DNA from: Pseudomonas phage PhiPA3
Direction: 5' to 3' (one strand)
Sequence record: HQ630627.1
Length of the DNA: 64,000 nucleotides
Shown here: piece by piece, positions 2,517 through 64,000 of the stretch
Layout of the letters: the number at the start of each line of letters is the position of its first letter
Position numbering within the stretch: the first letter of the stretch is position 1
Notes under the pieces: generated by a model
What the model saw: only the letters and a program-made list of their open reading frames with translations
What the model was told of the DNA's origin: nothing
Database searches by the model: none
Made by a program: the position numbers and the translations under genes

Positions 2517-2552
2517 CATTAAATTTTATTTCAAATCTATATTACGTCTTTG
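2517..2552 (+). promoter_or_regulatory. conserved phage promoter-like box (copy 1, TATATTAC core at 2538-2545)
   Basis: 36-nt sequence cattaaattttatttcaaatctatattacgtctttg is identical to 21269-21304; lies 36 nt upstream of the ATG at 2581. Confidence 0.55.
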
Positions 2553-7851: not shown

Positions 7852-7896
7852 ACGTGGTATTTTATCACAAGAAGTTCTGGATGGAGTGAAGACGCT

Positions 7897-8256
7897 GTGA
7901 AGGACTCTAAGCTAAAAGATCCTACCCCTGTGCTGGATTTCATTGCCAGTATCCATGCCCCACTGAAAATTAAAAACGGATTGGTAGCTGACAATATCGA
8001 ACACCGCGTGAGAGAATCGATGCGGAGCATGCTCTGCGATATAGGTGCCCGTAACGAGAAATTCGCGCACCACATCATCGATCGGATTCGGTTGGAGGAA
8101 GCAGATCGGGATGAACGTATCCAGTTCGACCGTAATATTCGATCCAAGTCCATGGATGAGTTGATGGTGTGGGCTAACGTTCAGCTGTGCATCATTGGGG
8201 GTGCACCTGCAACACTCGCTATTGATAAAGCCTGTAGGAGGTTGATGTGGGCTTGA
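7897..8256 (+). CDS. hypothetical protein (119 aa)
   Basis: ORF. Confidence 0.45.
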   Translation: MKDSKLKDPTPVLDFIASIHAPLKIKNGLVADNIEHRVRESMRSMLCDIGARNEKFAHHIIDRIRLEEADRDERIQFDRNIRSKSMDELMVWANVQLCIIGGAPATLAIDKACRRLMWA

Positions 8257-8597
8257 ACGTTTCTCGCAATAAACTGTTCCGGATGGTGAGCATTATCCGT
8301 CGGCAAGTTCCGGTAGCTGCCCATCCGGTTCAGGAATACGAGGCTACCATTGAAACGCAGATGTTGGAGCGTATCTCTGGTAAACCACGTTGGATGAAAG
8401 CTCAGACCATTAAAATGTCAGATGCTTACGCCAAGCGGCTAATGGATAAGCTGACATATTTACCTCCACCGGGTTACGATCTGGCGAAGATACAGGAATA
8501 TAAGCCAGTGGAAATCGATCCATGCTTTAAACGGTTTAATACGGATATTTCCGTTCGAATTGAACCTCACTACAACGCAATCCTTAAAGGTGTGTAA
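8247..8597 (+). CDS. hypothetical protein (116 aa), GTG start
   Basis: GTG at 8247 overlaps the upstream stop; aggaggttgatGTG RBS. Confidence 0.45.
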   Translation: MGLNVSRNKLFRMVSIIRRQVPVAAHPVQEYEATIETQMLERISGKPRWMKAQTIKMSDAYAKRLMDKLTYLPPPGYDLAKIQEYKPVEIDPCFKRFNTDISVRIEPHYNAILKGV

Positions 8598-14579: not shown

Positions 14580-15677
14580 ATGCAAATGCTTAAAGATATC
14601 TACAACCATTTTCGTACGAAACGTGTTCCCACCATGACCACGTTCCAAACCTTATTCAAGAACGGTGCAACGGTCATCCGTATTATCGATGGGGAGAAAA
14701 AGTTCTGGGTGTACGGTACAGGTGAGTTGATTGGCGACACCTACGAACTGTACTACTATTACATGAACGAGGAATACGATCGCGTAAAAAATGTAGTTAT
14801 CACTCCGTTGGATACACGAGCTTTCTTTGACTTGGATCTGGTAAGTGATTGGCCCAATGCCAAGGTTCGGGTACAGCATAATAGAGACGCCCAGGATGAA
14901 TTCATCCTAAAAACTATCTGTGAACGTAGTTTCGAGAACTGGCTCGTTAGTTCTGCCTACGTGAAGGCGTGGAAGACTTGGTTGGAAAAACCGTTGTATG
15001 AGCGTATACCTCGTGGCCATGGGGTTAAAGTGGGTAGTATCAGTAATCGTGACCTGTTTGCTATGTCCAACGTGGCTGATGGCGCAGACTACATTACCCT
15101 GTACGACTGTAAGGGTGAAATGTTCCAGATGCCGTATGCCATACTGGACTCGGACTTCTGGCATCATCACGAGGATAGCTTGGGCTATCCAGAATACATT
15201 CCATTGACCGTACCGCCCAAGCGACAAGCTTTGCATCACGATGATCCTCGTCGTTGGGTTGTTATCGAGCGTGTAACGGATCATGGACTGGATTACGCTG
15301 TACGTGGGCGCTACGCCGGTGAAGCGCTCCTGAAACCTACGGAAATCTTCAACATCACCATCGAACTAGATGGTCCTAACCTTGCTGGCCGTGATATCAA
15401 CCTCCAAGACATGTTGTTATTGGCTATTCTGCGTGATCCGTCCATGCAAGAGTTGGATCAGTTCCGAGTGTATCTAAACAACATTCGGATCAAGCATGCT
15501 GGGTTTGATGCTATCTTCTCTGCGTGGACCACCCGCCAGAGAGATAACAGTGAATGGCGTAATACTCATCCGTACATCTTCATCAAAGATAATGGTCGAC
15601 CTCAGGTTATCCATGATGAACGGACAGTGTATGTACGGTACGTTAATGCTGAAAGCGTGGAGACTGAACTTGATTAA
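14580..15677 (+). CDS. hypothetical protein (365 aa)
   Basis: taggagaatacaagATG after the terminator; start moved from the listed 14508. Confidence 0.6.
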   Translation: MQMLKDIYNHFRTKRVPTMTTFQTLFKNGATVIRIIDGEKKFWVYGTGELIGDTYELYYYYMNEEYDRVKNVVITPLDTRAFFDLDLVSDWPNAKVRVQHNRDAQDEFILKTICERSFENWLVSSAYVKAWKTWLEKPLYERIPRGHGVKVGSISNRDLFAMSNVADGADYITLYDCKGEMFQMPYAILDSDFWHHHEDSLGYPEYIPLTVPPKRQALHHDDPRRWVVIERVTDHGLDYAVRGRYAGEALLKPTEIFNITIELDGPNLAGRDINLQDMLLLAILRDPSMQELDQFRVYLNNIRIKHAGFDAIFSAWTTRQRDNSEWRNTHPYIFIKDNGRPQVIHDERTVYVRYVNAESVETELD

Positions 15678-21268: not shown

Positions 21269-21304
21269 CATTAAATTTTATTTCAAATCTATATTACGTC
21301 TTTG
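21269..21304 (+). promoter_or_regulatory. conserved promoter-like box (copy 2, identical to copy 1)
   Basis: cattaaattttatttcaaatctatattacgtctttg; 39 nt upstream of ATG 21336. Confidence 0.55.
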
Positions 21305-35519: not shown

Positions 35520-35545
35520 AAAGAATTTCAAGGCTATATTACAAC
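35520..35545 (+). promoter_or_regulatory. conserved promoter-like box (copy 3, tttcaaggc-TATATTAC-a)
   Basis: Follows a terminator; 45 nt before ATG 35587. Confidence 0.5.
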
Positions 35546-38295: not shown

Positions 38296-38328
38296 AGATT
38301 TAAAGCAATTAAAAGGCTATATTACAAA
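38296..38328 (+). promoter_or_regulatory. conserved promoter-like box (copy 4, tttaaag..aaaaggc-TATATTAC-a)
   Basis: 36 nt upstream of ATG 38361. Confidence 0.5.
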
Positions 38329-39165: not shown

Positions 39166-39183
39166 CACATCTATATTACGCTA
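39152..39183 (+). promoter_or_regulatory. conserved promoter-like box (copy 5, tttcacatc-TATATTAC-g)
   Basis: 27 nt upstream of ATG 39206. Confidence 0.5.
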
Positions 39184-45320: not shown

Positions 45321-45352
45321 ATTTAAAGCATTTAAAACCCTATATTACAAAT
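45321..45352 (+). promoter_or_regulatory. conserved promoter-like box (copy 6, tttaaag..aaaccc-TATATTAC-a)
   Basis: 44 nt upstream of ATG 45392. Confidence 0.5.
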
Positions 45353-49754: not shown

Positions 49755-49782
49755 TTATTGTTAGATCTACATTACGTCTTTG
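49755..49782 (+). promoter_or_regulatory. conserved promoter-like box (copy 7, ttagatc-TACATTAC-gtctttg)
   Basis: 32 nt upstream of the small-ORF ATG 49808. Confidence 0.5.
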
Positions 49783-58666: not shown

Positions 58667-58697
58667 GAGGGGCTGAGTGCCCCTCTTTATTCTTCTC
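58667..58697 (+). terminator. rho-independent terminator
   Basis: gaggggc-tgagt-gcccctc + tttattcttctc. Confidence 0.6.
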
Positions 58698-58735: not shown

Positions 58736-58954
58736 ATGTCTAAATGTAAACCGGAATACACCTGGGATCGACTTCAAGAGGAGATCCTTAATAATGGAAT
58801 CAAACATGTAACCCTACTAGCAACAATGCCAGATCGTGATCCTCCAAGGATCATTCATGGTGGTACATGTGAGTGCATTCACCCAATAAGAGAATTCAAA
58901 AATGCAAAACGAGATCACCGACCCCTCTGTTATAATCTTCACTGGTTGGGATGA
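58736..58954 (+). CDS. Cys/His-rich small ORF (72 aa); doubtful, overlaps the start of the next gene
   Basis: ORF after the terminator; CxC..H..C pattern. Confidence 0.3.
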   Translation: MSKCKPEYTWDRLQEEILNNGIKHVTLLATMPDRDPPRIIHGGTCECIHPIREFKNAKRDHRPLCYNLHWLG

Positions 58955-59729
58955 GCAACAAGTCGCATTGGAGTATATCCATGCTCAACGGTTGCAAGAT
59001 CTGCTGGAAATCATCCTGATGGGTAAAGATGACAACGATAATACCTATTTCGTTATCCGTCCCACGAAGGTTGCTCTGCGTGAACCAGCTGGTAGTTGGG
59101 TTAAGCATCTGACTGCCCTCGTGTACCGCATTCGCAGTAGACAACAAAATCATTCTTCTGTACGCGTATACGCGTACAAAGTACCGCTTGACACCATCTA
59201 TTCGTTCGTGACGGTTGGGGGTAGCCTCTACACGTTTACTGACGCTGAACGTGCTGAGTGTCGTTCTCTGGAACCCAAGAGCTGGTATCTCCCGATTGAC
59301 GGTTACCCCAAGATCTTGAAACTTCAGATCTGTGGTAATCCTATTGCTGTGCGTAGCGCTTACAAATACCTGCGTAACGAAATGCGCACGCGTACCTACA
59401 TTGGTGTACGGGACATTAAGAAAGCCATGGCATTGATGATGGCAAGTGGTGGGGATAAGGCCTACTTGCTAGCTATCACTGAAAATGGGGTGGTCGTTAA
59501 GATCGATCAAACCAAAATGTCCATCATGGAAAGCAAGAACGAATCCAACTGGCTCATGATGGATCTCATTGCCAACCACTTCACTCAACGAGACTGTACC
59601 AAGGTCGCTGAGAACCCTGAGCGACTGTGGGATGAATGGGACCAACTCCGGAAAGACTATATTCGTGCGATGCGCAACATTGCCGAACACAAAGTCCCCA
59701 ATCTCAACGTTTCTGTAAATAACTACTAA
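58902..59729 (+). CDS. hypothetical protein, paralog family E copy 1 (275 aa)
   Basis: LPIDGYPKILKLQICGNPIAVRSAYKYLRNEMR..GGDKAYLLAITENGVVVKIDQTKMSIM vs 59739 LPIPGIRPKLKRILLTGEHNSLRSVRRWLKWNI..GSSSVHFITEDGFVARLTKQGINMVF. Confidence 0.5.
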   Translation: MQNEITDPSVIIFTGWDEQQVALEYIHAQRLQDLLEIILMGKDDNDNTYFVIRPTKVALREPAGSWVKHLTALVYRIRSRQQNHSSVRVYAYKVPLDTIYSFVTVGGSLYTFTDAERAECRSLEPKSWYLPIDGYPKILKLQICGNPIAVRSAYKYLRNEMRTRTYIGVRDIKKAMALMMASGGDKAYLLAITENGVVVKIDQTKMSIMESKNESNWLMMDLIANHFTQRDCTKVAENPERLWDEWDQLRKDYIRAMRNIAEHKVPNLNVSVNNY

Positions 59730-59738
59730 GGCATTCCA

Positions 59739-60521
59739 ATGACTGACAAAGTAGCAGTAATCGCTATCCCGCGCCCACTTAGCCCCGAACACATGATCTA
59801 CCTGTACAACATGGTCGATCGACATAATGAGTCGCTCCCTGATCCTTTCTTCAACCTGGAAATGGTTGAAGATGAGGAAGGTGGTGATGGTCTCTACCTC
59901 ATTCGCCCCAATGCTGGATATTACTGGGCTAGACATCGTTATACTGAAAACCTGGAAGTAATGAAATCGGAACTGATAGCACAAGATATTGGCTATCACG
60001 ACTTCACGTTCGTCCGTGTTATTTTCAAAGCGATGGATACACTGAGCTATAACGGTAACCTACGCATCTTTAAGAGTCCGGAATGTGACTCTTACGAACT
60101 GGACATTCGCAAGGTAGATGTACACCTGCCGATTCCTGGAATCAGACCCAAGCTCAAGCGTATCCTGCTCACAGGCGAACATAATAGCCTTCGTAGTGTG
60201 CGTCGTTGGTTGAAATGGAACATCATCCACAACCGCGGTCGTCTGTGCCAAAACGTTATCCATGAGGCCATGAAACGCATGGGGTCTAGTAGTGTTCACT
60301 TCATCACTGAAGATGGCTTCGTGGCACGCTTGACCAAGCAAGGCATCAACATGGTGTTCGCTAATCCTCAAGCTACTGCGGTGCGAATGACTGCTTTGGC
60401 TAATGGGTTGGAGGAAGACATTTTGGTCAAAGGGCTGCGCCGTACGGAATCCCCGCCGCATGCCCCGATGTGGACCGTAATGCATGACGTCTACAGCTAC
60501 AACCAAGCATTTGCTATGTAA
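59739..60521 (+). CDS. hypothetical protein, paralog family E copy 2 (260 aa)
   Basis: See 58902-59729. Confidence 0.55.
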   Translation: MTDKVAVIAIPRPLSPEHMIYLYNMVDRHNESLPDPFFNLEMVEDEEGGDGLYLIRPNAGYYWARHRYTENLEVMKSELIAQDIGYHDFTFVRVIFKAMDTLSYNGNLRIFKSPECDSYELDIRKVDVHLPIPGIRPKLKRILLTGEHNSLRSVRRWLKWNIIHNRGRLCQNVIHEAMKRMGSSSVHFITEDGFVARLTKQGINMVFANPQATAVRMTALANGLEEDILVKGLRRTESPPHAPMWTVMHDVYSYNQAFAM

Positions 60522-60587
60522 TGGAATTGGACCCTTGTCAGAAATGACCGGGGTCCATCCATTTATAATCGATAACAGGAGACTCCA

Positions 60588-61373
60588 ATGAATCGTCGTA
60601 CCGAATACCGTTTCTCTCTGTCATACGACCGTGAGCTGGTCGCTGCTAATCCACTGGGTTTCGTGGTTGAAGAATTCCTTGGAGGCTGGTTCAAAGAACT
60701 CGAAGAAAAGATCAATCGAGATTATGTAGCTAGCTATAATGTGCCTTTCCATGGTAGCTGGAACTACTTTGAGTTGGAGCAATTCCAAAACAATGCTTTC
60801 TTCAACCAGTACCACGAAGTAATGCAGTCCCTCGAAGCATTGGAAAAACAACTGGGCGAACGCGCCGGATTGCGCATCCAGATCACAAAACCTGAGTGTG
60901 CTCTTACCCATGTACTGATTGGTCAGGATAAGATTTTGTTGTCTCCTGATTGTGGTCACGTGGGTATCCGTGTTCCAGAAGGGACAGTGGTGGCTAGCGA
61001 AAGATGGGGTGACCATAGAGATCGTAACGTAGATTCCATTGCTGTGTTTGGTGAGCATTCCAAGATGCGCTACGTTGCCAAGCAGGTGCGCTACGCATTG
61101 AAGCAAAAAGGTGTAACCACGATCGCTAACAGTTCGATGGCGCGATTCCTACATGACCTCTTCCACCCCACCTACGAAAACAACCAAAAGTACAAGTTCA
61201 ACATGATCATGTCTGACGTGTATGTATTGGTGTTATTCAAGGATGGTGGTGCTGAGATCTATGGCAAGGATCTGGGAGAGATCTTCGAAAACCATAACCT
61301 GATATTCCTAGAACGGGAATACACCATTTGTGGACAACATTTCCCGATGTTGACTGGAGACCGTTTGGTATAA
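60588..61373 (+). CDS. hypothetical protein (261 aa)
   Basis: acaggagactccaATG. Confidence 0.55.
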   Translation: MNRRTEYRFSLSYDRELVAANPLGFVVEEFLGGWFKELEEKINRDYVASYNVPFHGSWNYFELEQFQNNAFFNQYHEVMQSLEALEKQLGERAGLRIQITKPECALTHVLIGQDKILLSPDCGHVGIRVPEGTVVASERWGDHRDRNVDSIAVFGEHSKMRYVAKQVRYALKQKGVTTIANSSMARFLHDLFHPTYENNQKYKFNMIMSDVYVLVLFKDGGAEIYGKDLGEIFENHNLIFLEREYTICGQHFPMLTGDRLV

Positions 61374-61375
61374 TC

Positions 61376-62902
61376 ATGGAAACATTGATACATTACTACG
61401 ACCTGTTCATGACAATCAGTCAGAAGAACATGGTCATGGGGGGTGTAATTGGAGCGGGGATTGGTGCTTTCTTCTGGAGTGTCCTTCGGGGCATTCCGAG
61501 GAAGACCATCAACGCGATTAAGTCGCAGTTGATATCCACGCTCCATATCACCAACGTGGGGAATCAGTTTAACGAGAAAAACTTCGATGCTTTCATGGAG
61601 TGGTATCAGAAGCAACCGTTGGCTGGGTATAACCGAAGACTCAGTGCGAACACAGTTGACGACTGGGTATCGTCCGATGAGAGAAAACCAACGATTGGGG
61701 TTGGCTTCGGTTTACACTTCTTCATGTACCGTGGGCGACTGTTTTGGTTTAATAAAGTTCGGATCGACGGTAACCAATCTGCCGTAGATAAGCAGGAGAT
61801 TCTGATCCATGGGTTGACACGTGATAAACAGCTCCTGGTAGACATGGTGGAAGAGTACCGTGTTAAGCGAAAGAAGAATGGCCTGACGATCTGTCATTGG
61901 GACGGCAATCGCTGGGGCAACGAGATTGAAGTCACCAAACGTGATCTATCAACCGTTGTTCTGAACAATGAGATCAAAGCTGGACTGATGCGTCGAATGG
62001 AGGAATTCTATTCTGGACGCGCGTGGTATGATGAACGTGGGCTACCCTACAAGTTCACGGTAGTTTTCCACGGGCCACCGGGTACAGGTAAATCGTCTTT
62101 GGCTAAAGCATTCGCTTCTCACTACAATAAAAATGTCAGCACGATGTCTTTGGCAGCCATGTCGAACGATACCCTGCGGCGAGCTTTCCTGACGCTGCCT
62201 AAAGGGAACATCCTACTCATCGAGGACTTTGACGATACACCTGCTGTCAAAGATCGCTTGTCTTCTGATCCCGTTAAATTGGAAAACGAGATTAAGCGAA
62301 TGGAACGTGAATATAAGCTGGAGTATATCGGCCATCTGTTTCCGGACATGCAGGAGTATGAGAACAGTGTCCAGCGCTACGTAGCTATCGATAAAGTTGC
62401 CATTATGGCAGACCTTAGCCACGAGCCTGCCGGTCTCAGTGTCAGCATGGGTGGTGTTCGTGATGAGATTGAAAGCCAGGGCTACCAGATGGGCCCCGTC
62501 AGTATTGATGACTACGCAATTTGTCAACGGTACGCTGAGCTTTTGGTTAAGCGCGATCAGGGTGTACAGTTTGATACGAGTTCAGGCTTGACTTTATCGG
62601 CGCTGCTCAATGCGCTCGATGGGATCGTTCCTTTGGATGAAACGATGGTTATCATGACTACTAACCATCCAGAAAACCTGGACGCTGCATTGACTCGTAA
62701 GGGTCGTGTGGATTACATGGTCGAGATCCCGTTGTTCCAAGATGCGGAGGTACGTGAGTACATCAATCTCATGTTCCCGGATTACGAGGTCCCTACGGAT
62801 ATTCGTTTCCGGCCCATTGCAGGTTGCGATGTCATGGCGGCCTTCAGTGAAAACCGGACCTGTCCAGAATCGATGATTCGCGCCCTACCTAAAGTAGCAT
62901 AA
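61376..62902 (+). CDS. BCS1-like AAA+ ATPase with an N-terminal transmembrane anchor (508 aa)
   Basis: N-terminal TM MVMGGVIGAGIGAFFWSVL; Walker A HGPPGTGKSS; BCS1-type Walker B ILLIEDFDD; sensor/Arg-finger TTNHPENLDAALTRKGRVD. Start moved from the listed 61328. Confidence 0.75.
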   Translation: METLIHYYDLFMTISQKNMVMGGVIGAGIGAFFWSVLRGIPRKTINAIKSQLISTLHITNVGNQFNEKNFDAFMEWYQKQPLAGYNRRLSANTVDDWVSSDERKPTIGVGFGLHFFMYRGRLFWFNKVRIDGNQSAVDKQEILIHGLTRDKQLLVDMVEEYRVKRKKNGLTICHWDGNRWGNEIEVTKRDLSTVVLNNEIKAGLMRRMEEFYSGRAWYDERGLPYKFTVVFHGPPGTGKSSLAKAFASHYNKNVSTMSLAAMSNDTLRRAFLTLPKGNILLIEDFDDTPAVKDRLSSDPVKLENEIKRMEREYKLEYIGHLFPDMQEYENSVQRYVAIDKVAIMADLSHEPAGLSVSMGGVRDEIESQGYQMGPVSIDDYAICQRYAELLVKRDQGVQFDTSSGLTLSALLNALDGIVPLDETMVIMTTNHPENLDAALTRKGRVDYMVEIPLFQDAEVREYINLMFPDYEVPTDIRFRPIAGCDVMAAFSENRTCPESMIRALPKVA

Positions 62903-62905
62903 ACA

Positions 62906-62934
62906 GAGAGGCCTTCGGGCCTCTCTTTATATTC
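62906..62934 (+). terminator. rho-independent terminator (UUCG)
   Basis: gagaggcc-ttcg-ggcctctc + tttatattc. Confidence 0.7.
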
Positions 62935-62962
62935 AAATCCATTTAAAGCCTACATTACAAGC
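62932..62962 (+). promoter_or_regulatory. conserved promoter-like box (copy 8, tttaaagcc-TACATTAC-a)
   Basis: 28 nt upstream of ATG 62986. Confidence 0.5.
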
Positions 62963-63899: not shown

Positions 63900-64000
63900 T
63901 GAGTGCATGGTTGGTTGATAAGGTAATGGCTCGTATTCGTCAGTTCGACATTCAAAGGGAAGTCGAACAGGCTGCTGAACAACCGCAAGCAATCGAAGAA
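63900..64000 (+). CDS. hypothetical protein, N-terminal fragment running off the window end
   Basis: aaagggaacgaaaATG; MSAWLVDKVMARIRQFDIQREVEQAAEQPQAIEE.. still open at 64000. Confidence 0.3.

Follow-up and report, generated by a model that had tools for sequence, protein, structure and literature searches.

The 64,000-nucleotide stretch of the Pseudomonas phage PhiPA3 genome analysed here (HQ630627.1; hereafter the window) contains, on its plus strand, two closely spaced genes that are the subject of this report, i.e. one for a soluble protein of 261 residues (60588-61373, +) and one for an AAA+ ATPase of the BCS1 type (61376-62902, +; 508 residues from its ATG). Both open reading frames (ORFs) lie where an earlier sequence-only reading had placed them, and the TAA stop codon of the first (61371-61373) is 2 nucleotides ahead of the ATG of the second. 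PhiPA3 is a phiKZ-like, nucleus-forming jumbo phage. Its ATPase is 100% identical to PhiPA3 gp345 (AVT69_gp345; 'Uncharacterized protein 347'), which is recorded as a hypothetical protein. The longest ORF for the ATPase starts at a TTG at 61328; the alignment with phiKZ gp286 (PHIKZ286), however, begins at residue 1 of the protein read from the ATG, and the two proteins are 54% identical over their full lengths, including the membrane helix and the insert described below, a similarity that identifies gp345 as the ortholog of gp286. The upstream 261-residue protein (PhiPA3 gp344, 'protein 346') is the ortholog of phiKZ gp285 (60% identity to PHIKZ285) and is considered here as a candidate partner or adaptor of the ATPase.

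We regard the membership of gp345 in the BCS1 family as practically certain. The Pfam BCS1_N ('middle') domain (PF08740) is matched at residues 33-194 (61472-61957, +; E 1.7e-15; profile positions 4-182 of 182) with 57.9 bits, compared with a gathering cut-off of 28.1, and sits directly N-terminal to the AAA module, the Pfam match to which falls into two pieces. In phmmer searches of the sequences in the PDB, yeast Bcs1 (E 2.9e-37) and mouse Bcs1 (3.4e-26) led, with BCS1_N and the first half of the AAA module aligning to residues 76-323 of the yeast protein, whereas the top non-BCS1 AAA proteins (AFG2 and Cdc48) reached ~6e-19 over the C-terminal half only. An AlphaFold2 (AF2) model made from 78 homologs has a predicted local distance difference test (pLDDT) score of 90.5 and a predicted template modelling (pTM) score of 0.77, and its BCS1_N region is beta-rich. 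When compared with the PDB by Foldseek, ranks 1-17 for this model were all Bcs1 structures (E 3.6e-25 to 5e-15; template modelling score at most 0.74 on the target), followed by Bacillus subtilis YjoB (2.9e-14), then Cdc48 (3.4e-10) and proteasomal Rpt proteins (~1e-10). The margin of Bcs1 over other AAA proteins is thus ~18 orders of magnitude in E by sequence and ~15 by fold.

The AAA catalytic set of the PhiPA3 ATPase is complete, comprising Walker A, Walker B, sensor 1 and arginine fingers, and the motifs quoted in the sequence-only reading (Walker A, Walker B and the sensor region) were all found. With conservation scored in the alignment of 78 homologs, G233, G236, G238 and K239 of Walker A (GPPGTGKS, residues 233-240; 62072-62095, +) are invariant, as are D284 of Walker B (LLIEDFDD, residues 280-287; 62213-62236, +), in which E283, F285 and D286 reach a conservation of 90% or more, and T429, N430, R441 and R444 of the sensor-1 and arginine-finger region (TTNHPENLDAALTRKGRVD, residues 428-446; 62657-62713, +). 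The β2-α2 segment (VSTMSLAAMSNDTL) has no aromatic pore-loop-1, as in Bcs1; within it the stretch VSTMSLAAMSNDTLRRAF aligns to ICILNLSENNLTDDRLNH of yeast Bcs1, which is likewise non-aromatic. Absence of the aromatic-hydrophobic-Gly pore-loop-1 that threading AAA motors carry is a hallmark of BCS1 proteins, and is consistent with folded clients.

A single membrane anchor is predicted at residues 19-37 (MVMGGVIGAGIGAFFWSVL; 61430-61486, +) from hydropathy, positional conservation and an AF2 helix, in agreement with the N-terminal transmembrane helix that had been proposed from the sequence. The 19-residue Kyte-Doolittle mean of this segment, 1.83, is the maximum for the protein; its N-terminal flank of 18 residues has a net charge of about -1, and the 15 residues on its other side (RGIPRKTINAIKSQL) include four that are positively charged. 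Under the positive-inside rule this predicts a topology with the N-terminus out and the AAA module in the cytoplasm. In the AF2 model residues 19-52 form one continuous helix that runs into the next domain. Comparison with the best 120 of 707 protein-database matches reveals a hydrophobic segment at the same place in all but ~4, and those ~4 are N-terminally truncated.

It is extremely improbable that a generic AAA protein of the FtsH, Cdc48 or ClpX type has been misread as BCS1. Orthologs in the phi9_PA9 and OMKO1 records are labelled 'ftsH: ATP-dependent zinc metalloprotease', and NCBIfam gives weak, sub-threshold PAN, Cdc48 and FtsH matches in the C-terminal half of the ATPase; against this, BCS1_N scores above the Pfam cut-off and is present in 118 of the best 120 of the 707 homologs, and Bcs1 precedes all other AAA proteins in both sequence and fold. 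FtsH, Cdc48/p97 and Rpt/PAN share the AAA core with the PhiPA3 ATPase (C-terminal half, E ~1e-18 to 1e-10), but the latter lacks the protease and N-terminal cofactor domains of these classical unfoldases as well as their aromatic pore-loop-1, and has BCS1_N instead. The FtsH NCBIfam models score 27.7-39.4 bits on it compared with cut-offs of 600-1008, and a protease identity was rejected because Pfam finds no M41 peptidase domain and HExxH is absent from the protein; the label 'FtsH' that orthologs carry in some GenBank records is therefore wrong. Pfam BCS1_N, phmmer against the PDB and Foldseek together rule out an FtsH, Cdc48 or ClpX identity. The BCS1-type claim of the sequence-only reading was therefore borne out, the best matches being to Bcs1 rather than to a generic AAA family, and the transmembrane segment being present. 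An identity as an anti-phage defence protein was also considered and rejected; PADLOC gave only partial P-loop matches, to IetA and TRIP13, over ~65 residues (E 4e-11 to 3e-4).

YjoB (7W42), with a Bcs1-like N-domain and an AAA fold, is the second-best group (phmmer E 3.9e-15), far weaker than Bcs1. YjoB has no membrane anchor, being a soluble chaperone that forms hexamers.

The insert and the upstream gene

A further feature of the PhiPA3 ATPase is an insert of ~95 extra residues (~288-400; 62237-62575, +) between strand β3, which carries Walker B, and helix α3, i.e. at the position of pore-loop-2 in classical AAA proteins. Walker B is separated from the conserved 'LSALLNALDG' helix by 124 residues in PhiPA3, and the corresponding spacing to 'LNALDG' is 120-125 residues in PhiPA3, phiKZ, P0002, P0005 and PS119XW, compared with 28-70 residues in most of the best 120 homologs. 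In the AF2 model the insert folds into helices (residues 299-313, 362-367 and 377-394) and strands (315-317, 333-338 and 341-346), with pLDDT values mostly of 73-95 and one block at 57. Its sequence is kept only at its start (AVKDR..DPVKLE.EI), while its centre diverges strongly between PhiPA3 and phiKZ. In a neighbour-joining (NJ) tree, calculated without bootstrap, the long-insert ATPases (PhiPA3, phiKZ, P0002, P0005, PS119XW and a branch of P0019, P0021 and P0037) form one clade, sister to the short-spacer, Noxifer-type proteins. The insert is a feature of this one clade; it was absent from the sequence-only reading and is new in this analysis.

The 261-residue protein was found by tblastn in phages of the phiKZ genus only, and searches of large databases returned itself and two relatives only. 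It has no match in Pfam, NCBIfam or PADLOC and no detectable membrane segment, and in PHROGs it forms its own family, without assigned function. Its AF2 model (pLDDT 46) is unusable and was kept out of the fold search. The ortholog of gp285 in the GenBank record of phage U5 is labelled 'capsid decoration protein'.

A profile of gp285-like proteins was built from five positional equivalents. Of the six long-insert lineages for which context is available, five (PhiPA3, phiKZ/PA7, PS119XW, L005 and L006) have a gp285-like gene directly 5' of the ATPase gene, at a spacing of -3 to +13 nucleotides, and the profile search found such a gene beside none of ~80 short-spacer ATPases. In the sixth lineage (P0037; loci L007/L010) the upstream gene encodes 146 residues, and there is a weak gp285-like match downstream. 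In phiKZ itself the gp285 and gp286 genes overlap by 4 nucleotides. The coupled partner has diverged to 15-29% identity while the tight coupling has persisted. Judged from this pattern of sequence and gene order, the gp285-like gene and the long-insert ATPase constitute a two-gene module.

The proposal made from the sequence that the 261-residue protein is a partner of the ATPase is thus reasonable, in view of the coupling, the co-occurrence in five of six lineages, and the equal RNA levels and like behaviour in biochemical fractionation and cross-linking of the phiKZ orthologs (see below). The same does not extend to the ATPase family as a whole, since no neighbouring gene is conserved across the 89 loci compared. 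The largest cluster of sense-strand neighbours covers 14 loci and includes the thymidylate synthase gene of Phobos.

Published data on the phiKZ orthologs

The evidence on expression, fractionation, cross-linking, dispensability and ChmA levels that follows comes entirely from phiKZ, not PhiPA3. Its early class assignment is inferred from published knock-down RNA-seq tables for phiKZ at 15 min (reads per kilobase per million, RPKM). The RNA of PHIKZ286 was 1045 in the control and 1267, 2126, 2102 and 1232 on knock-down of chmA, the non-virion RNA polymerase subunit genes 055 and 068, and PicA, respectively; the corresponding values for PHIKZ285 were 1070, and 1992, 2539, 1914 and 2100. By comparison, PHIKZ292 RNA fell from 29,555 to 945, 1474, 6043 and 311. 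As the RNAs of gp285 and gp286 were reduced by none of the four knock-downs, both genes behave as early-type genes, independent of the non-virion polymerase and of the nucleus. The RNA of phiKZ gp284 (12,766) is ~12-fold above that of gp285, which is about equal to that of gp286, a pattern consistent with a bicistronic unit of gp285 and gp286 from which gp284 stands apart.

Peptides of both PHIKZ285 and PHIKZ286 have been detected by mass spectrometry during infection. Gradient profiling by sequencing (Grad-seq) of phiKZ-infected cells placed 'ATPases PHIKZ208/-286' in heavy fractions at 10-30 min, and size-exclusion chromatography with mass spectrometry (SEC-MS; PMC10449902) found that gp285 and gp286 both co-elute with 70S ribosomes. 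Mass spectrometry after cross-linking (XL-MS) of the phiKZ 70S fractions linked PHIKZ286 to rplL, rplK and rplJ, and PHIKZ285 to rpmC, with the caution from its authors that phage-ribosome signals may reflect ongoing translation. In one column of Supplement 6 of PMC10449902, PHIKZ285 and PHIKZ286 carry the value 2, and gp279-284, 287 and 288 the value 1, a figure that may be the number of SEC peak groups.

Neither gene is needed for growth in the laboratory. Transposon sequencing of phiKZ recorded 55 distinct insertions and 26,387 reads for PHIKZ286, and 32 insertions and 26,130 reads for PHIKZ285, as against 13 reads for PHIKZ305 and 29 for PHIKZ306; because insertions are tolerated, PHIKZ285 and PHIKZ286 are dispensable on strain PAO1. 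An antisense screen in phiKZ classed PHIKZ286 as 'uncharacterized' and non-core, with its knock-down lowering ChmA ('++') and leaving plaque and colony counts unchanged. These data sets contained the ortholog without recognition of it as a BCS1 protein; the tie between the BCS1 identity and the omics results is new here.

Flanking features and relatives

Directly past the stop codon of the ATPase gene is an intrinsic terminator (62905-62926, +), with a 9-bp GC-rich stem, a UUCG loop and a U-rich tail (-17.5 kcal/mol, z -5.2). Upstream of the 261-residue protein gene are two ORFs of what the sequence-only reading termed 'family E', i.e. member 1 (58902-59729, +; 275 residues) and member 2 (59739-60521, +; 260 residues), which are distant paralogs (25% identity over 129 residues, E 4e-6) with relatives in PS119XW and one metagenomic contig. 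At the same position phiKZ has one gene, gp284, for a protein of ~278 residues, where PhiPA3 has two; the order of a gp285-like gene followed by the ATPase gene is the same in both phages, and no significant similarity was found between the family E pair and gp284. A strong RNA hairpin with a GAAA loop and no U-tract (60528-60557, +; -23.9 kcal/mol, z -4.35) sits in the gap between family E member 2 and the 261-residue protein gene; the site corresponds to the gp284/gp285 gap of phiKZ, past which RNA is ~12-fold lower, and the hairpin may be an attenuator or processing site. A terminator-like hairpin upstream of the family E pair (58667-58685, +; -15.4 kcal/mol, z -2.7) is a possible upstream boundary of a four-gene unit.

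The suggestion that the family E pair, too, are partners of the ATPase fared less well, as proximity is the sole link, with a hairpin between them and the module, and ~12-fold higher RNA for gp284 in phiKZ. That family E and the 261-residue protein form one paralogous family was not established, hhalign giving 13.6% probability over 32 columns; a local jackhmmer search found one sequence that bridges family E and the gp285-like proteins.

A common promoter motif after the hairpins, ATCCATTTA, was rejected as too weak (4 sites compared with 0.66 expected). Six copies of CTATATTAC, the 8-base core of which (TATATTAC) is expected 1.2 times, occur on the plus strand of the window (2537-2545, 21289-21297, 35534-35542, 38317-38325, 39171-39179 and 45340-45348), each preceded by a T-rich 'ttaaa..tttcaaa'; this context fits published early promoters of the phiKZ type, with an extended -10 box and an upstream T-rich element. 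The ATPase unit is preceded by no canonical copy of CTATATTAC. A one-mismatch variant, CTACATTAC, is present at 62950-62958, 15089-15097 and 49767-49775, the first of these being just past the ATPase terminator and ahead of the next gene.

In phiKZ, orf287 is imp5, which encodes a cargo-specific import factor of the phage nucleus needed for host TopA, and which lies ~360 nucleotides downstream of orf286. Outside the window there are five long-insert lineages with context, and in all of them a homolog of Imp5 is located downstream of the ATPase, at a distance of 0.4-4 kb, also put at 0.8-4 kb (L001, phiKZ, 7882-8535; L002, 6253-6954; L005, 10754-11431; L006, 4806-5504; L007, 10335-11015). The PhiPA3 copy, if there is one, would be past window position 64000. 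Imp5 is absent from the ATPase loci of Noxifer and L011, both of them short-spacer relatives.

Relatives of the ATPase were found by tblastn in 160 of 50,697 phage records, the largest groups being phages of Pseudomonas, Serratia, Klebsiella, Ralstonia and Erwinia, with further relatives in large sipho-type Brevundimonas phages, Caulobacter phage CcrPW, the 91-kb Shewanella phage KASIA and Microbacterium phages. The 707 protein-database matches have E values of at most 1e-10, and many of the best 120 are on contigs of 200-360 kb; 118 of these 120 carry both BCS1_N and AAA. Residues 1-200 (membrane helix and BCS1_N), when compared with 1.84 billion cluster representatives, matched 336 clusters at E ≤1e-3 and 140 at 1e-10, and a pattern-limited scan of 185,579 species genomes, with an alignment of 10 sequences, gave ~12 full-length relatives. 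Given these figures, the description of bacterial BCS1-like ATPases as rare in the sequence-only reading is fair. Two bacterial relatives were confirmed by Pfam as BCS1_N plus AAA proteins. One, in Paracoccus methylarcula (L095, NZ_PXNQ02000001.1, 4692-5927), adjoins genes for a KAP NTPase, a TnsA-like and a QueC-like protein, a context that looks like a mobile or conflict island; the other, in Ca. Aalborgiella (L100, 4890-6143), is among peptidase U32 and MacB/FtsX genes.

Many giant eukaryotic viruses, including Catovirus, Klosneuvirus, Medusavirus and Clandestinovirus, encode BCS1-like ATPases, often several per genome; BCS1-like loci are also present on GVMAG contigs (L057, L061, L072, L080-L083, L085 and L086), and there are further matches in BFVD. 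The homolog P0053 (807 residues, on a contig of 116,892 bp) has a PF14528 segment, of the LAGLIDADG homing endonuclease type, between BCS1_N and AAA, no intact Walker A pattern was found in it, and it probably contains an intein at the P-loop. The labels of orthologs vary, including, besides 'ftsH', 'chaperone-like protein' and 'cell division protein'; that of RVTF4 is annotated as 'mitochondrial respiratory chain complex III assembly protein' and that of Erythrobacter phage XM05 as 'major head protein'.

Possible functions of the gene pair

Mitochondrial Bcs1 is a heptameric ring with a basket in the membrane, a seal formed by BCS1_N, and a vestibule on the ATPase side that accommodates the folded Rieske domain, as is also apparent from the titles of PDB entries. 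This description is said to go back to Kater 2020, Tang 2020 and Wagener 2011. The PhiPA3 ATPase has the same order of parts as Bcs1/BCS1L (yeast, 6SH3 and 9GS2; mouse, 6UKO), i.e. an N-terminal membrane helix (predicted in the phage protein), BCS1_N and one AAA module, and the likeness extends to Walker A and B, sensor 1, two arginines and the lack of an aromatic pore-loop-1. It differs from Bcs1 in its sequence (~20% identity), its extra ~95-residue insert, the lack of a Pfam lid match and the lack of a mitochondrial targeting context. The phage client must differ from that of Bcs1, because the Rieske protein of complex III is transported by the twin-arginine translocation (Tat) route in bacteria.

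We tentatively favour, with a confidence that falls a little short of even, a role for gp345 as an accessory, early ring ATPase of the inner membrane that acts on a folded client, its partner being the 261-residue protein. The ATPase would have a short external N-terminus, one membrane helix, BCS1_N and a complete AAA module facing the cytoplasm, and, by homology with mitochondrial Bcs1, may assemble into a ring, either in the inner membrane of the host or in one that derives from it. ATP would be used to hold a folded client and to pass it into or across the bilayer, or to assemble it there, with no threading of an unfolded chain. The ATPase would be made early in infection and be accessory rather than essential. 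The 261-residue protein, co-expressed with it, could be an adaptor, a regulator or the first client; the insert would be a likely docking site for this protein. In the phiKZ/PhiPA3 clade the insert and the 261-residue protein may thus add a client-selecting or regulatory layer.

Several observations weigh against this interpretation. For the phiKZ orthologs, the sole data on physical contacts implicate ribosomes rather than a client in the membrane. Because the gene is dispensable, any transport by the ATPase is not needed for growth on PAO1. Export of a folded effector, as raised in the sequence-only reading, is no more than a possible role of an ATPase whose phiKZ ortholog the phage can do without in the laboratory. 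The search across the 89 loci for a family-wide conserved neighbour as a candidate client found none, so that gene context gives no pointer to a common client. With respect to the module, the sub-branch of P0019, P0021 and P0037 has the long insert without a gp285-like gene directly upstream, and the co-occurrence of insert and partner may reflect shared ancestry, because both define a single NJ clade. Finally, the BCS1 lid model PF25426 (AAA_lid_BCS1) is not matched in the ATPase at Pfam E ≤0.1; the AF2 model has three C-terminal helices at residues 456-503, Foldseek aligns the full length to Bcs1, and AAA_lid_BCS1 is matched in one bacterial homolog, that of Paracoccus methylarcula.

An alternative that we consider unlikely, but that has the sole physical data, themselves ambiguous, behind it, is that the ATPase and the 261-residue protein form an early, ribosome-directed factor that binds the host 70S particle. 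Such a factor might, for example, tether translating ribosomes to a membrane, catch phage chains as they emerge at the tunnel exit, or remodel the ribosomes in the course of takeover. The XL-MS links of PHIKZ286 to rplL, rplK and rplJ and of PHIKZ285 to rpmC (L29, at the tunnel exit) argue for it, as do the early-type behaviour of both genes and the targeting of ribosomes by other early phiKZ proteins. The authors of the XL-MS work, however, warn of phage proteins that are themselves under translation; gp286 is in heavy Grad-seq fractions yet outside the listed 30S and 50S clusters; and a large membrane ring could co-elute with ribosomes through its size alone. L7/L12 is abundant, flexible and lysine-rich and cross-links readily, and, to our knowledge, no member of the BCS1 family acts on ribosomes.

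A membrane-proximal chaperone of virion assembly, which would deliver folded proteins into assembling heads, is decidedly improbable for this ATPase. It is the published hypothesis for phage BCS1 orthologs: the passages of Iyer et al. (2021; Viruses 13:63) on this subject report orthologs of the BCS1 chaperone/translocase in representatives of all three major groups of jumbo phages, and propose that phage BCS1 binds and translocates folded proteins in head assembly near the membrane. Those orthologs belong to the same family as gp345, and the occurrence of the family in many large phages of unrelated lineages makes a generic morphogenetic role conceivable. A role in head assembly nevertheless accords poorly with the data on the phiKZ ortholog, which is expressed early and is dispensable: its transcription is independent of the non-virion RNA polymerase, which drives the middle and late genes, and it is not needed for plaques. 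Moreover, no structural genes are conserved as neighbours, and the orientation inferred by homology would move clients out of the cytoplasm, the site of head filling.

A role in counter-defence or takeover, in which the ring would block, extract or take apart a protein of the host inner membrane, for instance a membrane-bound defence effector or an envelope machine, and would matter in particular hosts only, has a similarly small chance of being correct. The ATPase is accessory, early and membrane-anchored, its insert and partner are fast-evolving, and the Paracoccus methylarcula homolog is in a conflict-like or mobile-like context. Against this, PADLOC returned matches to IetA and TRIP13 at the generic AAA level only (of the order of E 1e-10 or weaker), and the Ca. 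Aalborgiella homolog is among housekeeping-type genes.

It is also conceivable, as a speculation on which we would place little weight, that the ATPase and its 261-residue partner are an early machine in the lipid membrane around the injected genome, i.e. of the early-infection vesicle, or in the inner membrane next to it. With no more assurance, such a machine would move folded phage proteins across the bilayer or dock translating ribosomes to it, speeding the hand-over to the protein-shelled nucleus. This possibility would bring together the membrane anchor, the early expression, the cross-links to ribosomes, the lowering of ChmA and the Imp5 neighbour, and, if it is true, no energy-using component of transport would have preceded this machine in the cycle of a nucleus-forming phage.

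That the ATPase is a motor of nuclear import itself is very unlikely. Imp5 is downstream of the ATPase in phiKZ and other long-insert lineages, the import papers and the review consulted mention no ATPase or energy source, and Bcs1 transports folded proteins, nuclear cargo being folded too. The nuclear shell, however, is a protein lattice, whereas the anchor of the ATPase is suited to lipid; orf286 is non-core and dispensable, whereas import of the polymerases is essential; and the EcoRI-TopA selection yielded mutants in imp1, imp3, imp4 and imp5, with none reported in orf286, which is a large non-essential target. The ATPase goes unmentioned in the main text of the paper on proximity labelling of the PhiPA3 shell. 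The family is also present in large sipho-type and phiCbK-like phages, which, as far as we know, form no nucleus.

The novelty implied by the sequence-only reading was overstated, because the literature already has phage BCS1 orthologs with a translocase hypothesis (Iyer et al. 2021) and public databases already give the Pfam domains of gp345. Beyond that paper, the literature searched contains none linking BCS1 to phages, and the BCS1 passages of Iyer et al. make no mention of the insert, a coupled partner or an Imp5 neighbourhood. What is new here is the insert, the two-gene module, the early behaviour of the phiKZ orthologs, the tie between BCS1 identity and omics data, and the Imp5 neighbourhood.

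The overall results correct the 'hypothetical protein' and 'FtsH' annotations of these proteins and, as both phages and giant viruses encode such proteins, indicate that BCS1 motors recur in large viruses of bacteria and eukaryotes. An early membrane-anchored ATPase encoded near an import adaptor is a concrete candidate for a part in the membrane stage of early infection, and for the energy source by which nucleus-forming phages move folded proteins, although current genetics argues against a core role. Bcs1 is one of the few machines that move fully folded proteins across a membrane, and its mechanism is still being resolved structurally; a dispensable phage BCS1 protein may thus be useful as a tractable bacterial model of folded-protein translocation.

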